A stretch of 64,000 bases of DNA from an uncultured Pseudomonadota bacterium (GCA_963749075.1 CAVVLJ010000017.1:704001-768000), one strand, 5' to 3'. Positions 4,778 through 11,229 are shown, counted from the first letter of the stretch. Made by a program: numbers and translations. Notes: generated from the letters alone by a model not told the origin.

Positions 4778-6679
4778 ATGCTGCAGATCGGCGAGCTCAC
4801 CTATCGCGTCGGCGGCCGCGCGCTCTTCGAGCGCGCGAGCGCCGTCATTGCCGACGGCGCGCACGTCGGCCTCGTCGGCCGCAACGGCGCCGGCAAGACG
4901 ACGCTCTTGCGCCTCATCGCGGGCGAGCTCGAGCCCGACGGCGGCGACGTCCGGCTCTCGCCGGGCTTGCGCCTCGGCGTCGTCGCCCAGGAGCTTCCTG
5001 CGCTCGCCCAGAGCCTCCTCGATTTCGTCCTCGCGGCCGACCGGGAGCGCACCGCTCTCCTCGCCGAGGCCGAGCGTGCGCGCGAGCCCCAGCGCATCGC
5101 CGACATCCACCACCGGCTGGCCGACATCGAGGCCCACCGCGCCGCCCCGCGCGCGGCGCGCATCCTGGCAGGTCTCGGCTTCGACGAGGCGGCGCAGCGC
5201 CGGCCGCTCAGCGACTTCTCGGGCGGCTGGCGCATGCGCGTGGCGCTCGCGGCGGCACTCTTCGCCGCCCCCGACCTCCTCCTCCTCGACGAGCCGACCA
5301 ACCACCTCGATCTCGAGGCGACGCTCTGGCTCGAGTCCTATCTCGCGGGCTATCCGCACACGGCGATCGTGGTGAGCCACGACCGCGAGCTCCTCAACAA
5401 GGTGGCGGGCGCCATCCTGCACGTCGACGCCGGCAAGCTCGTGCTCTACAGCGGCGGCTACGACCGCTTCGAGCGCACCCGGCGCGAGCGCCTCGCCTTT
5501 CAGCAGGCACTCTCCGAGCGCCAGGCGGCCGAGCGCCGCCGCATCCAGGCCTTCGTCGACCGCTTCCGCGCCAAGGCCAGCAAGGCGCGCCAGGCGCAGA
5601 GCCGGCTCAAGGCGCTGGCACGCATGGAGCCCATCGCCGCCGTCGCCGAGGAGGAGGCGCCGAGCTTCGATTTCCCGAGCCCCGAGGCGCTGGCGCCGCC
5701 GCTCCTGGCGCTCGACAGGGTCGCCGTCGGCTATGCGCCGGATGCCCCGGTGCTCGAGCGGCTCTCGCTGCGCATCGACCCGGACGACCGCATAGCCCTC
5801 CTCGGCGCCAACGGCAACGGCAAGTCGACGCTCGTCAAGCTGCTCGCCGGCCGCCTCAAGGCCTTGAGCGGCACGCGCCGCGCGCCGGGCAAGCTGCGCA
5901 TCGGCTATTTCGCCCAGCACCAGGCGGACGAGCTCGAGCTCGAGGCGACGCCTTTCGACCACATGCGCCACCTCATGCCCAAGGCGGAGGAGGCCGCGGT
6001 GCGCGCCCAGCTCGGCCGCTTCGGCTTCGCCCAGGCGCGCGCCGAGGTCAAGGTGGCGGGCCTCTCGGGCGGCGAGAAGGCGCGGCTCCTCTTCGCCCTC
6101 ATGAGCCGCTCAGCACCGCACCTCATGCTGCTCGACGAGCCGACCAACCATCTCGACATCGACGCCCGCGAAGCGCTCGTCGAGGCGCTCAACGCCTATG
6201 AGGGGGCGGTCGTGCTAGTGAGCCACGACCCGCACCTCATCGAGCTCGTCGCCGAGCGGCTGTGGCTCGTCGGCAATGGCACGGCAGTCCCTTACGACGG
6301 CGATCTCGAAGACTACCGGAGCGCCCTCCTCGACGAGCGGCGCGGCAGGCCGGAGGCGGGCGCGCGCGCCAAGGACGGCGAGGCCAAGGGCGGCCGCGCG
6401 AGAAAGCGGGAGCAGCGCCGCGCCGCCGCCTCATCACGCGCGGCGGTGGCCCACCTCAAGCGCGCGGCGGCGAGCGCCGAGCGGCGCGTGGCGGAGCTCA
6501 CCCGCGAGAAGGAGCAGCTCGAGGCGAAGCTCGCCGACCCTGCGGTCTACGCCGGGCCCACCGCCACGCTCCTCGCGCTGCAGCTCCGCCACGGCGAGAT
6601 CAAGGCGGCCCTCGCCGCGGCCGAGGAGGCCTGGCTCGCGGCGCAAGGCGGGATCGAGGAGGCGGGCGCCACCCCGTGA
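4778..6679 (+). CDS. ABC-F family ATPase (YheS-like, ribosome-associated)
   Basis: Two ABC domains (GRNGAGKTT / FSGGWRMR / LLDEPTNHLD; GANGNGKST / LSGGEK), no TM segments, C-terminal coiled coil. Confidence 0.93.
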   Translation: MLQIGELTYRVGGRALFERASAVIADGAHVGLVGRNGAGKTTLLRLIAGELEPDGGDVRLSPGLRLGVVAQELPALAQSLLDFVLAADRERTALLAEAERAREPQRIADIHHRLADIEAHRAAPRAARILAGLGFDEAAQRRPLSDFSGGWRMRVALAAALFAAPDLLLLDEPTNHLDLEATLWLESYLAGYPHTAIVVSHDRELLNKVAGAILHVDAGKLVLYSGGYDRFERTRRERLAFQQALSERQAAERRRIQAFVDRFRAKASKARQAQSRLKALARMEPIAAVAEEEAPSFDFPSPEALAPPLLALDRVAVGYAPDAPVLERLSLRIDPDDRIALLGANGNGKSTLVKLLAGRLKALSGTRRAPGKLRIGYFAQHQADELELEATPFDHMRHLMPKAEEAAVRAQLGRFGFAQARAEVKVAGLSGGEKARLLFALMSRSAPHLMLLDEPTNHLDIDAREALVEALNAYEGAVVLVSHDPHLIELVAERLWLVGNGTAVPYDGDLEDYRSALLDERRGRPEAGARAKDGEAKGGRARKREQRRAAASSRAAVAHLKRAAASAERRVAELTREKEQLEAKLADPAVYAGPTATLLALQLRHGEIKAALAAAEEAWLAAQGGIEEAGATP

Positions 6680-6949
6680 GGCGGAGGCGCCTCGGCGAGC
6701 GGCCGCGCGCGCCGTCCCTTTTTTGTCCCTCGCACGCCGGCAGCGTTCAGCTTAGCTTGCTCATCGGCCTACGAAAGCGGCCGCGCCGGGCTGGCGCGAC
6801 TCGAGCGCTCCGTCCACGGATGCGTTGATGCCACAACGATTCAAGAGCGCGCGGTGCCGCGCAATCGAGAGGCAATGCTTGCGCGTGCGACTCCGGAAGA
6901 TTATACGGATTCGAGAGAACCCATTTTGCGACGTTCCGGGAGACCTGCG

Positions 6950-7180
6950 ATGAAGCGTATCCTCATCCCCGTGGTCCTGCTCGCCCTCCTGGGCACGGCG
7001 GCCTGCTCCGGCATGGACGATACCCAGCAGCGCACGCTTTCGGGCGGCACGGCCGGTGCCGTCGGCGGTGCCATCGGCGGTGCCTTGACCGGCTGCATCT
7101 GGTGCGGCGCCGTCGTCGGCGGCGCCGTGGGTGCCGCGGGCGGCTACGTCTACGACCAGGTGAAGAAGGGCGATCTCTAG
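6950..7180 (+). CDS. Small glycine-zipper lipoprotein
   Basis: MKRILIPVVLLALLGTAAC lipobox; GAVGGAIGGA...GAVVGGAVGAAGGY zipper. Confidence 0.85.
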   Translation: MKRILIPVVLLALLGTAACSGMDDTQQRTLSGGTAGAVGGAIGGALTGCIWCGAVVGGAVGAAGGYVYDQVKKGDL

Positions 7181-7206
7181 GCGCGCTGTGCCGCGGCAGC
7201 GCAGCC

Positions 7207-7674
7207 TCACGGTCTCGGCTGGCTCGGCATGGTGAAGACCGGGCTAACGAAGCGCTCTCCGCCTGGCGCCGTCGTGACGACGAACCTGAAGGGGCCGGCT
7301 CCGTAATAGAGGTTGGCGCGACAGGCGGCGACGCACTGGCCCGAGCAGCTGAAGCCGCGCCACGGCACGACGGTGAGAGCGGCTGCCGGGGCAATGCGCA
7401 CCGGGCCGTCAGGCGTCGTGCGCTCGCAACGCGCCACGGCGTTGAACTCCGTCAACACGGCGGTCCAGCCGCCGCCCTCCCTGGCCTCCACCGCGATCTT
7501 CGCCTGAATCTCGACGGGCGCGGTGCCGGGATTGACGATCCGTAGACCTCCATAATGCGCCGTCAACTCGAGGCGGAGCTCCGGCGGCGCCTGGCTCAGC
7601 ACCTGGCTTGGCGGCATCACCCAGGCGGCGGCCGCAAGGACGGCGCTCAGCGCCGCACGTCGAAGAGCGGCCAT
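7207..7674 (-). CDS. Hypothetical exported Cys-containing beta-rich protein (155 aa)
   Basis: ATG 7674, MAALRRAALSAVLAAAAW signal-like N-terminus; C...CSGQCVAAC; overlaps the upstream gene end. Confidence 0.65.
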   Translation of the reverse strand: MAALRRAALSAVLAAAAWVMPPSQVLSQAPPELRLELTAHYGGLRIVNPGTAPVEIQAKIAVEAREGGGWTAVLTEFNAVARCERTTPDGPVRIAPAAALTVVPWRGFSCSGQCVAACRANLYYGAGPFRFVVTTAPGGERFVSPVFTMPSQPRP

Positions 7675-8495
7675 CCGGTGGTCTCCCTGACGTTGGGCTT
7701 GCTCTCCTCCGCCGCGGCGATCTGATTGCAATTCTGGGCCTGGGGCGTCGTCAGCACGCCGACGAAGCGCGCGTCCGTCGGCCGGCCGGCGATCACATGG
7801 CCAACGTTGGCGGAATTTCCGCCGGGCACGGACCTTGCGACGGGCGACCCGGCGGCCGGCGGCAAGGTGAAGCTGCTCTGCCAATTCACGTTCCAATAGA
7901 GGTTCTGCAGGAAATGAAGCTGCCCCGGGCCGCGCAGAACGAGCGAGATGCAGAAGGCGAACTCGAGCTGGCACTCGAACAAAAAATTCATTTGCCCGGT
8001 CGTGCCGTTCGTCCGGGTATAGGCGAAGAAGTCGCCGGGAAAGTCGCGGTGGATGACGCTGAGCGTCAAGGGAAACGTCGGCTTGGCGGGCAACGAGGCG
8101 ACGAACGGCAGCGCCGGACCGCCGGTGACCGGGATTGCCGTCGCCGGCGACGCGCCGGTGCCGTAGAACGGCGCTCCTGCCGTCAGGCAGTCGAAGCACG
8201 CCTGATGAGGCCGCGCCGGCGGCCGTGCGCGCTGGAGGAAGGCACTGCCGTCCTTCTCGGTGCGCCCGCGGTAGGCGGCCCAGTTCGTCTCGATCCATTG
8301 AGCCTGCAGGAAACCCAGGGCCCAGCCGGTTCCGATGTCGCCGGCGGCGCCGTGGAGCGTCGCCGTCCCGACGGCCTCGATGCCGGTCTGGAGGCTGAAG
8401 GAGGCGCCCGACTGGCCGCCCGACGTGGTGGTCGCGACCGGCGCCAACGACGGCCGCTGGGTCACCTTGAATTGAGACGGCGCGACCGTAATCAT
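7647..8495 (-). CDS. Hypothetical protein, possibly FAM78-like (282 aa)
   Basis: Strong RBS (GGGAGGAGGGC-ATG); natural composition unlike the shadow ORFs; WALGFLQA, PFYG and LQNLYW motifs. Confidence 0.8.
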   Translation of the reverse strand: MITVAPSQFKVTQRPSLAPVATTTSGGQSGASFSLQTGIEAVGTATLHGAAGDIGTGWALGFLQAQWIETNWAAYRGRTEKDGSAFLQRARPPARPHQACFDCLTAGAPFYGTGASPATAIPVTGGPALPFVASLPAKPTFPLTLSVIHRDFPGDFFAYTRTNGTTGQMNFLFECQLEFAFCISLVLRGPGQLHFLQNLYWNVNWQSSFTLPPAAGSPVARSVPGGNSANVGHVIAGRPTDARFVGVLTTPQAQNCNQIAAAEESKPNVRETTGWPLFDVRR

Positions 8496-8624
8496 GCCCT
8501 CCTCCCTTGATCGTTCTCAACGCGGCGACGCCGTGCCCCCGGCCGCACATGGCGCACGCACGGGAGGTCCCCCAGGATAGCACCGTGGAAGCGATGGGCG
8601 ACAGCGCCGGTCGAAACGGCCGGC

Positions 8625-9224
8625 TCAGGCGCGCGGCTCGGACGCCCGCTTGGTGAAGCGCCACACGACGGCCGGCGGCACGTTGAGCCACGCCGTGCCG
8701 ACGCGCATGGCACGCCAGCCCCATTCCGCGAGCTTCTCCCGGCGCACCGGCGATTTCGGCCCATAGGTGTATTGGATGAAGGCGCCCGAGTCGTCGAGCA
8801 GGGCGCGCGACTCGGCGAGCACGGCCGCTTGCTGGCGCTCCCCCATGGCGAGGAAAGGGAGGCTCGAGACCACGGCCGCCAGGCGCTCGATGCCGCGCTC
8901 CCGGAGCGCTTGCCCGAGGCTCGCGGCATCGCAGCGCACGATGGCGAGGTTGGGAAAGCGCTTCTGGAGCAGGCGATAGAGCACGCCGTCGCGCTCGACG
9001 ACCATGAGGCGCTCGGCCGGCAGCCCGGTTGCGAGAAGTGCCGCCGTGATGGCGCCCGTGCCGCCGCCGAGCTCGACCACCATGCCCGGCCGCTGCGGGT
9101 CGATCTGGCGCGCCATCAGCCGCGCCAACGCCGCACCGCTCGGCACGATCGACGCCGTCTTGAGGGGATTGCGCAGCCAACGGGCGAAGAAGATGCCGTC
9201 GGTCTTGTCGAGCAGCCTTGCCAT
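8625..9224 (-). CDS. pmtA: Phospholipid N-methyltransferase (rhizobial PmtA type)
   Basis: WLRNPLKTASIVPS, VVELGGGTGAIT, VVSSLP, QYTYG, NVPPA. Confidence 0.8.
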   Translation of the reverse strand: MARLLDKTDGIFFARWLRNPLKTASIVPSGAALARLMARQIDPQRPGMVVELGGGTGAITAALLATGLPAERLMVVERDGVLYRLLQKRFPNLAIVRCDAASLGQALRERGIERLAAVVSSLPFLAMGERQQAAVLAESRALLDDSGAFIQYTYGPKSPVRREKLAEWGWRAMRVGTAWLNVPPAVVWRFTKRASEPRA

Positions 9225-9233
9225 GCGCGATGC

Positions 9234-9683
9234 CTATCCCCTGCGCTCCCACTTGCCGCGCGCGTCCTGCTGCCAATAGACGACCTCGTGGCCGGCCTCC
9301 TTGTAGCTCTGCCAGCGCAGCCGCGACGCGGCCACGGCGGCGGCGTCGTTGCCGTCGAAGAGCTCGAGGCAGCGCGCGAAGCGGGCCACGTCGGCCGAGC
9401 GCGCGCCATCCGCCAGCACCAGGATCTCCGCCCCGTTCGGGTTCTCGTCGCTCTCGGTGAGCCAGACCGGCTGCTCGGCGGCGCTGCCGTCGCGGGCGCT
9501 GCCGTGCGGCAGGAAGCTGCGCTCCTCGTAGGTCCAGAGGAGATTGTCCACCGCCTCGACGCGCTCCTTGGAGCCGAGCATCACGACCGCGCGCTTGCCC
9601 GCGGCGAGCACCTTCTCGAGGAGTGCCGGCAGCGCCGCCTCGAGGCGCTGGCGCTGCAAGTGGTAGAACCAGACCTCGCTCAC
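9234..9683 (-). CDS. holC: DNA polymerase III subunit chi
   Basis: VWFYHL, LWTY..SFLPHG, ENPNGA; follows pepA; GTG start 9683. Confidence 0.93.
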   Translation of the reverse strand: MSEVWFYHLQRQRLEAALPALLEKVLAAGKRAVVMLGSKERVEAVDNLLWTYEERSFLPHGSARDGSAAEQPVWLTESDENPNGAEILVLADGARSADVARFARCLELFDGNDAAAVAASRLRWQSYKEAGHEVVYWQQDARGKWERRG

Positions 9684-9726
9684 CTCGCCTCCGGGGAGCG
9701 GCGGAGGGCGCACCGCGGCACCGCCC

Positions 9727-11229
9727 TCACTTGCCCTCGTAATGGTCGGCGACGAAGCGCTCGAGCAGGCGGACGCCGAAGGCGGTCCCTCCCTTGGGTA
9801 CCGTGGGCTTGTCCTTGGACGACCAGGCGACGCCCGCGATGTCGAGGTGCGCCCAGGCCATGTCGTCCTTCACGAAACGCTTGATGAACTGGGCCGCGGT
9901 GATGCTGCCGCCGGCCCGGTCGCCGACGTTCTTCATGTCGGCGGCGTCGGATTTGATCGCCTTGTCGTACTCCTCGCCCAAGGGCATGCGCCAGAGCGGC
10001 TCGCCCACCGCCTTCCCCGCCTTGACCAGGCGGTCGGCGAGCTCGTTGTTGTTGGCGAAGAGGCCGGCGTACTCATGGCCGAGCGCTATGATGATGGCGC
10101 CCGTGAGCGTCGCGAGATCGACCATGAGGCGCGGCTTGAAGCGCTCCTGCGTGTACCACAGGGCGTCCGCCAGCACGAGCCGGCCCTCGGCGTCGGTGTT
10201 GATGACCTCGACGGTCTGGCCCGACATCGTGGTCACGATGTCGCCCGGGCGCTGCGCCGTGCCCGAGGGCATGTTCTCGACGAGGCCGCCGATGCCGACG
10301 ACGTTCACCCTGGCCTTGCGTCCGGCGAGCGCCTTCATGAGCCCGATCACCACGCCGGCGCCGCCCATGTCCCACTTCATGTCCTCCATGTTGGCGGCGG
10401 GCTTGAGGGAGATGCCGCCGGTGTCGAAGGTGACGCCTTTGCCGATGAAGGCGAGCGGGCTCTGGTCGCGCGCGCGCGGCGCACCGTTCCACCGCATGAT
10501 CAGGAGACGCGGCGGCCTGGCGCTGCCCTGGGCCACGCCGAGGAGCGCTCCCATGCCGAGCTTGGCCATCGCCTTCTCGTCGAGCACCTCGACCTTGACG
10601 CCGAGCTCGCCCAGGCTCTGCCCGGCCGCGGCAAGGCTCTCGGGATAGATGACGTTGGCGGGCTCGGAGACGAGATCGCGCGTGAAGAACACGCCGTCGG
10701 CAATGCGCGCGAGCGGCTCGAAGGCCCTGCGCGCCCGGCCGGCCTTGGCGACGGCCACGGTCAGCGTCTTGAGGCTCGGCTTGTCCTCCGGCTTCTCCTT
10801 GGTGCGGTATTTGTCGAAGCGGTAGGAGCGCAGCCGCGCGCCGAAGGCGAGGTTCGCGGCGACGAGCTCGGGCGGCAGCCGCACGCCGGGGACCTTGTCG
10901 ACGAGGACCGCGGCGGCGCTCTCGCCGCTCTCCGCGAGATGCGCCTCGATGCGGCCGCCCAACGCCTGCGCCTCGGCGGCGTCGAGCGCCTTGGCGGCAC
11001 CGAGCCCCGCCAACACGATGCGGGAGAGCGCGGTGCCCGCCGGCGCCACCAGCTCGGCGAGCTGACCCTTCTTGCCCTTGAACTTGCCGCTCGCGAGCGC
11101 GCGCGTGACGGCACCGCCGGTGAGCCCGTCGAGCTCGGCCGCACTCGGCGCGAGCTTGCCGCCCTCCAGCACTCCGACCACGACAGCGCCCTTCCCGGGC
11201 CGCTTCAACTCGCCGAACTCGATGTCCAT
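9727..11229 (-). CDS. pepA: Leucyl aminopeptidase (M17)
   Basis: GKGVTFDTGGISLK, MKWDMGG, NTDAEGRL, DLATLTGA, WAHLDIAG. Confidence 0.97.
   Translation of the reverse strand: MDIEFGELKRPGKGAVVVGVLEGGKLAPSAAELDGLTGGAVTRALASGKFKGKKGQLAELVAPAGTALSRIVLAGLGAAKALDAAEAQALGGRIEAHLAESGESAAAVLVDKVPGVRLPPELVAANLAFGARLRSYRFDKYRTKEKPEDKPSLKTLTVAVAKAGRARRAFEPLARIADGVFFTRDLVSEPANVIYPESLAAAGQSLGELGVKVEVLDEKAMAKLGMGALLGVAQGSARPPRLLIMRWNGAPRARDQSPLAFIGKGVTFDTGGISLKPAANMEDMKWDMGGAGVVIGLMKALAGRKARVNVVGIGGLVENMPSGTAQRPGDIVTTMSGQTVEVINTDAEGRLVLADALWYTQERFKPRLMVDLATLTGAIIIALGHEYAGLFANNNELADRLVKAGKAVGEPLWRMPLGEEYDKAIKSDAADMKNVGDRAGGSITAAQFIKRFVKDDMAWAHLDIAGVAWSSKDKPTVPKGGTAFGVRLLERFVADHYEGK

Follow-up and report, generated by a model that had tools for sequence, protein, structure and literature searches.

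Here we describe a two-gene unit in a 64,000-nucleotide stretch of DNA from an uncultured Pseudomonadota bacterium (GCA_963749075.1 CAVVLJ010000017.1:704001-768000; 'the window' denotes this whole stretch). The unit, which occupies positions 7207-8495, encodes a 282-aa protein that lacks a signal peptide and a 155-aa partner protein that carries one. We lean, by a modest degree, towards a reading in which the large protein is an envelope-acting effector and the small one is a periplasmic immunity protein. We base this reading on the cargo-toxin position that the effector domain takes behind DUF4157, the coupling to a gene whose product is exported, the occurrence of several divergent pairs per genome, the extra or degenerate partner copies that lack an effector of their own, and the patchy, mobile distribution of the pair. 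Furthermore, profile comparisons indicate that the effector domain is quite probably a distant homologue of the animal FAM78A/B proteins. The combined proposal—i.e. that an undescribed family of injected antibacterial effectors with periplasmic immunity is the bacterial counterpart, and a plausible evolutionary source, of vertebrate FAM78A/B—is tentative, and we rate it somewhat short of even.

The effector-like gene and its overlapping partner

The unit comprises the following elements:

7647..8495, minus strand: coding sequence of a putative effector with a FAM78-like domain (P0001), 282 aa, from open reading frame (ORF) and translation
8496..8509, minus strand: Shine-Dalgarno region, mRNA ...CAAGGGAGGAGGGC-AUG, read from the sequence
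7207..7674, minus strand: coding sequence of the partner P0239, a putative periplasmic immunity protein, 155 aa, with a signal peptide and an immunoglobulin (Ig)-like domain of ~125 aa with four conserved Cys
7647..7674, minus strand: overlap of the effector and partner frames, 28 nt, with the partner ATG within the last effector codons

Much of what the initial annotation, made from the sequence alone, had said of the large gene held up. The 282-aa ORF was confirmed at 7647-8495 on the minus strand, the ribosome binding site described as strong corresponds to a purine-rich Shine-Dalgarno sequence (AAGGGAGGAGGG) directly 5' of the ATG, and the N-terminus has no hydrophobic leader, in good agreement with the proposed lack of a signal peptide. 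The protein had also been called beta-rich. The AlphaFold2 model, computed with alignment A1 as input (A1 contains 51 effector-family sequences, A2 contains 93, and A3 is made of partner proteins), is almost all beta, with 17 strand elements, two C-terminal helices and a long hairpin formed by residues 169-210 (mean predicted local distance difference test score, pLDDT, 91.5; predicted template modelling score, pTM, 0.88). The sequence motifs that had been listed are all present and in the order given, and one spacing required correction, since the actual arrangement is L177-x3-F181 and not x4. A promoter-like match at 8520-8491 was set aside because it overlaps the start codon.

The modelled fold is a beta-sandwich without a close solved relative. 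Foldseek comparison of the model with the PDB returned nothing at E ≤ 1e-3; its top rows were staphylococcal leukocidins at E 6e-3 with a template modelling (TM) score below 0.2, which is non-specific by the tool's own standard. A profile search of PDB sequences gave aegerolysins as the best match at E 0.27, also a non-specific level. Of 245 family proteins collected, 186 span the whole domain. Conservation in these 186 is 100% at D102, D151 and W201, while G61, Q64, Y75, G77, G83, P153, N163, N170 and F181 are conserved in at least 98%, and C100 and C256 in 94% and 91%, respectively. The invariant polar residues Q64, Y75, S84, D102, D151, N163 and N170 suggest a putative ligand, metal or catalytic site. 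We also considered a glycoside hydrolase family 16 (GH16)-like strand, E174-x-Q176-x-E178, and abandoned it, since conservation at the three positions reaches only 80-83% and no jelly-roll glycosidase was found among the fold matches.

The second gene of the unit (7207-7674) was absent from the initial annotation. Its frame begins at 7674, 28 nt ahead of the effector stop, and ends at 7207; the AlphaFold2 model of its product has a pLDDT of 87.6. To see how widely it occurs, the DNA just downstream of the effector homologue was surveyed in 37 related loci and in the window. A candidate downstream ORF was present in 26 loci, and a hidden Markov model (HMM) built from ten of the downstream candidates matches 24 of 27 sequences, that of the window included, at E values from 3e-68 to 5e-24. 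There is therefore one partner family in 23 of the 37 loci plus the window, i.e. at 24 of 38 loci. The exact 28-nt overlap is found in 16 of the 24 pairs, and elsewhere the called partner start overlaps the effector frame by 4 to 31 nt (the start is uncertain at L031). Such an overlap suggests translational coupling of the two genes. In the window and 15 loci the same 28 nt encode both the effector C-terminus W..FDVRR and the partner N-terminus M-G/A-x-F/L-R-R.

Every partner in alignment A3 has a hydrophobic leader, several have lipobox-like cysteines, and four cysteines (C83, C110, C114 and C118) are conserved. A leader and four conserved cysteines are expected of an exported, disulfide-bonded protein, and we predict that the partner is a Sec-exported, disulfide-bonded, Ig-like protein that is lipidated in some relatives.

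The partner follows the effector-like gene at the level of whole genomes. It is present in 22 of 36 genomes, and the 14 genomes with a partnerless locus have no copy anywhere. In five multi-copy genomes a partner adjoins every effector copy. One of them, the genome of locus L009 (G054), holds six divergent effector copies and seven partners: the effectors, located on contigs C155, C98, C114, C109, C136 and C39, each have an adjoining partner, and the seventh partner lies in tandem on C114. Two of the six effector copies carry an in-frame stop. Elsewhere, one genome contains an additional partner copy that is degenerate and has no adjoining effector match, and in a third genome a broken effector adjoins an intact partner. 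Partnerless homologues at L018, L019, L021, L025, L027, L029, L032-L034 and L037, which come largely from Planctomycetota and Acidobacteriota, align with the query no further than about residue 260, and thus the C-terminal helical part differs where the partner is missing.

RefSeq calls the same overlapping gene pair, both genes as 'hypothetical', on a Polymorphobacter megaplasmid, where it adjoins IS66. This pair (L048, NZ_CP080242.1 30153-31417; WP_219773983/WP_219773984) lies on the 842-kb plasmid of a cultured lichen isolate, Polymorphobacter sp. PAMC 29334, and tblastn located a second matching place on the same plasmid. In a Geobacteraceae metagenome-assembled genome (MAG), two effector-like genes stand in tandem (L014:4979-5806 and 5989-6819), with no partner genome-wide.

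Family distribution, DUF4157 fusions and proposed function

The large protein had been labelled an orphan. This label is wrong because homologues are found in hundreds of clusters. A word-indexed search recovered 96 close homologues, every one of them annotated as 'hypothetical', and an exhaustive phmmer search yielded 262 clusters (50% identity) at E ≤ 1e-3, 179 at 1e-10 and 58 at 1e-30. The 37 related loci come from reference genomes of several phyla, and the family occurs in Alpha-, Beta- and Deltaproteobacteria, Acidobacteriota, Planctomycetota and Victivallales (MAGs); the MAG labels of the carriers are Acetobacteraceae, Sphingomonas, Xanthobacteraceae, Burkholderiales, Geobacteraceae, Acidobacteriota/Bryobacterales, Planctomycetota and Victivallales. 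The family is unnamed in Pfam and NCBIfam. With the cutoff relaxed to E ≤ 10, the effector still matched nothing in these two databases; neither effector nor partner had a match in Pfam, NCBIfam and PADLOC, and a Pfam scan of all 93 A2 members gave only scattered noise matches, each in a single member. An ESM Atlas search gave no usable match, and tblastn of phage records gave no match.

Most of the 186 full-length relatives stand alone (157), three have short extensions, and 26 carry an N-terminal extension of at least 80 residues, in which an HExxH motif is intact in 25 of 26 cases. When 28 long members were tested with Pfam, 22 contained eCIS_core (PF13699, DUF4157), always N-terminal to the effector domain. 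The fused forms are scattered on a FastTree tree of the domain, requiring at least 18 parsimony changes. We found no fused forms of 553 aa or more, which is weak evidence. According to the literature, DUF4157 is an N-terminal domain that marks toxins linked to extracellular contractile injection systems (eCIS), with the toxin domain at the C-terminus, and it is sometimes found in effectors of type VI secretion systems (T6SS) (PMC8213781, PMC11297309); the C-terminal domains of DUF4157 proteins are described there as mostly unannotated (PMC11297309). The eCIS-associated toxins resemble the present family in that 26 of 186 relatives place the domain C-terminally behind DUF4157 and in that the distribution of the family is patchy and environmental, and they differ from the case at hand in that the window's protein is stand-alone, with no DUF4157 in a scan of its sequence, and the host genome has no eCIS marker matches. 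The domain may already sit among the unnamed clusters in the supplements of these two papers (PMC8213781, PMC11297309).

The genomic surroundings offer some further indications. When 267 ORFs around 36 loci were scanned against Pfam, the neighbours were mostly unrelated housekeeping genes, and the partner alone was conserved. At one locus (L004:1468-8973) the pair is part of an island of T6SS cargo genes, with Hcp on one side and a prePAAR-PAAR-GH-E HNH nuclease on the other, together with a SUFU-like (immunity-type) gene and DcrB. A Tle1-like T6SS phospholipase is encoded ~2 kb away at L016, PIN and Fic genes abut L005 and L010, and L019, L020, L023 and L031 lie amid IS21, TIR, integrase, GmrSD, HEPN and Cas genes. 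The host genome (G000) itself encodes two adjacent T6SS VipB/TssC genes on contig C20 at ~505.8-508.3 kb (L039 and L040; 442 and 370 bits). A T6SS is thus encoded in the host, on another contig and far from the cassette.

In well-known T6SS pairs that act on the periplasm, such as Tse1/Tsi1, Tae/Tai and Tle/Tli, a leaderless effector gene is followed by the gene for an immunity protein with a signal peptide or a lipoprotein signal. The cassette resembles these pairs in gene order, in the extra or degenerate partner copies, in the occasional Hcp/PAAR/Tle islands and in the presence of a T6SS in the host. It differs from them in that its proteins have no sequence or fold similarity to theirs and in that no vgrG, hcp or PAAR gene adjoins the cassette in the window. 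On the reading favoured here, the leaderless large protein would be an antibacterial effector exported by a contractile injection machine—the T6SS in the host genome, or an eCIS where the effector domain is fused behind DUF4157—and its site of action would be the envelope or periplasm of diderm target cells. The small protein, stationed in the periplasm of the producer, would bind and neutralise the incoming effector. Here we infer toxicity, a periplasmic site of action, immunity by binding and the route of delivery alike. The initial annotation had expressed the hope that the gene context would reveal the function, and in our judgement this hope was borne out.

Several observations weigh against an effector-immunity function. 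The partner is missing at 14 of 38 loci, including DUF4157-fused planctomycete forms. No T6SS or eCIS genes were found near the window's cassette, T6SS genes lie near only two of 37 loci, and none of the loci that we examined is in an eCIS operon. The host genome (96% complete) gave no match to DUF4157, eCIS tube or phage-type sheath; control genomes are also blank for two of these families, and absence from the host therefore does not follow. An eCIS tube gene is present in two of five genomes with fused forms vs one of five with stand-alone forms, a sample too small for any conclusion. Finally, beta-sandwiches are more usual in binding modules than in enzymes, and the partner could be a co-factor and not an antidote.

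There are two other readings of the pair, both of which we regard as distinctly unlikely. The unit could be a cooperative binary module of the envelope or cell surface, e.g. a two-component membrane-binding, pore-forming or adhesive system, with the exported Ig-like protein serving as a co-factor or receptor for the beta-sandwich protein. The strict adjacency and co-variation of the two genes fit co-functioning as well as they fit antagonism. The large protein, moreover, is similar to beta-barrel pore-forming toxins and aegerolysins in being all-beta, in having a very long amphipathic hairpin and in its weak top matches to the leukocidins and aegerolysins described above; these matches, however, are below the tools' own noise levels. 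It is also the small protein and not the large one that carries an export signal, the fusion behind DUF4157 points to an injected cargo, and it is typical of immunity genes to occur as extra or degenerate copies that have no effector of their own, as seen for the partner. The other reading, to which we assign a similarly low probability, holds that the large protein is not toxic and serves as a module for binding or regulation, such as a domain for cargo loading or an adaptor in injection systems, or an arrestin- or Asf1-like scaffold inside the cell, and that the downstream gene is functionally unrelated to immunity.

Probable relationship to the animal FAM78 proteins

The initial annotation had proposed, from the order of its motifs, that the large protein resembles FAM78A/B, and this proposal stood in part: a profile match to the last exon of FAM78A lies far above all controls, while profile-profile alignment gave low probabilities and the reverse search was not significant. 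FAM78 sequence was obtained by scanning metagenome contigs for a degenerate pattern that combines three short motifs. Two contigs were returned (L046 and L047), with a GC content of 0.45 and a polypyrimidine tract and AG directly before a 174-codon terminal exon. The ORF at L047:880-1338 falls in a 90%-identity cluster of 46 members that includes XP_046874023.1, 'protein FAM78A isoform X2', and the exon takes the name FAM78A from this cluster member. A motif of the W..GW[IV]Q type, which would correspond to the bacterial W58-Q64 region, was not found in the six frames of L046 and L047. The upstream exon is not on these contigs, and the comparison covers the last exon only. FAM78A/B and the 282-aa bacterial protein are presumably of similar size.

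The A2 profile of 93 sequences matches the exon with 25.5 and 23.6 bits (E 7e-10 and 3e-9; two targets). The alignment is co-linear: profile positions 95-204, about 110 of 270, align with exon residues 13-119, which corresponds to bacterial residues ~97-213. A profile of 186 domains scores similarly (23.7 and 22.6 bits), and the narrower 51-sequence A1 profile reaches only 5.7 and 3.4 bits. Controls for A2 were considerably lower. The best of 2000 exon shuffles scored 10.1 bits, the reversed exon scored -1.8 bits, the top score in a set of 311 unrelated neighbour ORFs was 3.5 bits, and among 25,782 host-genome frames of at least 100 aa the best besides the gene itself (329.9 bits) reached 7.1 bits. 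Residues Q98, D102, D151, P153, L172, Q176, F181, L185 and W201 are conserved in the FAM78A alignment; C100, N163, N170, N202, W205 and Q206 of the bacterial family are not kept in the exon.

A full-length, high-probability match to FAM78 was not obtained. Comparison of the bacterial family with FAM78 by hhalign gave probabilities of 27% (P 6.7e-4) and 2% (P 0.021), and of 11% with 16 fish sequences (P 0.0028). In the reverse direction, a profile derived from the exon recovers bacterial members weakly (best 10.1 bits, E 0.014), and 48 of its 60 top matches are members of the bacterial family vs 44% expected. Pfam and PDB sequence searches with the exon returned nothing. A word-indexed profile search at E ≤ 10 listed 82 bacterial proteins and no FAM78, a type of search too insensitive for distant relatives.

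We consider it unlikely that the bacterial and animal families are unrelated and that their likeness is a convergent or chance similarity of beta-rich proteins. Several results speak for such an origin: the low hhalign probabilities, the 3-6 bits of the 51-sequence profile, the E values of 0.014 and above at which the exon profile finds bacterial members, and the loss in FAM78A of N163 and N170, which are conserved in at least 98% of the bacterial proteins, and of C100 (94%). In addition, FAM78 was picked for its resemblance, and therefore the effective search space is larger than two sequences. Set against this, the 23.6-25.5 bits of the A2 match are 13-18 bits above every control, the co-linear alignment of ~110 positions keeps all three residues that are 100% conserved in the 186 bacterial members, and the share of family members among the top reverse matches exceeds expectation. 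Distant homology is the reading that we prefer. The coupled exported partner and the DUF4157 fusions are bacterial features that set the bacterial family apart from FAM78A/B.

If the combined proposal is true, the bacterial pair would open the first experimental route to the ligands or activity of the FAM78 fold, via the conserved D102/D151 site. Polymorphobacter sp. PAMC 29334, a strain available in culture, carries the pair. The orphan human FAM78 gene family would become testable through a bacterial homologue whose context is informative. The proposed assignment would also put a name to one of the unannotated C-terminal domains of DUF4157 proteins and supply its cognate partner. We found no literature combining FAM78 with 'polymorphic toxin', the names FAM78A/B do not occur in the titles of the 25 top-ranked of 168 papers that mention FAM78A or FAM78B, and there is no FAM78 entry in the text supplements of the ECOD/DPAM2 paper (PMC10927120).

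The insertion site and flanking genes

The pair had been described as inserted among core genes, and comparison with related genomes bears this out: all five same-genus genomes have a precise empty site, at which 50-100 bp and no effector gene separate the flanking genes. The extent of the insertion and the genes next to it are as follows:

7174..8646, strand not applicable: stretch inserted with the two genes, delimited by flank matching in same-genus genomes
6854..7180, plus strand: Gly-zipper lipoprotein gene, outside the cassette; Pfam Gly-zipper_YMGG; variably present
8625..9224, minus strand: methyltransferase gene, a conserved core flank; Pfam RrnaAD/Methyltransf_25; 80-87% DNA identity in congeners

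Window positions 7174-8646 are a horizontally acquired, mobile two-gene cassette of ~1.47 kb. It is flanked by genes for an ABC-F ATPase, the Gly-zipper lipoprotein, the methyltransferase, HolC and PepA. When the DNA of window positions 5000-11000 was compared with the five same-genus genomes, both flanks were found in all five at 79-87% identity. The gap between the lipoprotein and methyltransferase genes is 97 bp in G004 vs 1473 bp in the window, and window segments 6949-7173 and 8647-8798 match G004 positions that are 97 bp apart. Similarly, in G001 and G003 window positions ~6664 (the end of the ABC-F gene) and 8648 (methyltransferase) map ~50 bp apart. A search with the family profile of 40 related genomes (five of the same genus, five of the same family and 30 of the same class) gave 0 matches. 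No direct repeats were seen at the insertion junctions. The GC content dips slightly over the effector gene, to 0.65 vs ~0.72. The Gly-zipper lipoprotein gene is present at the site in only one of the five congeners, G004, and in G003 it is located on another contig.
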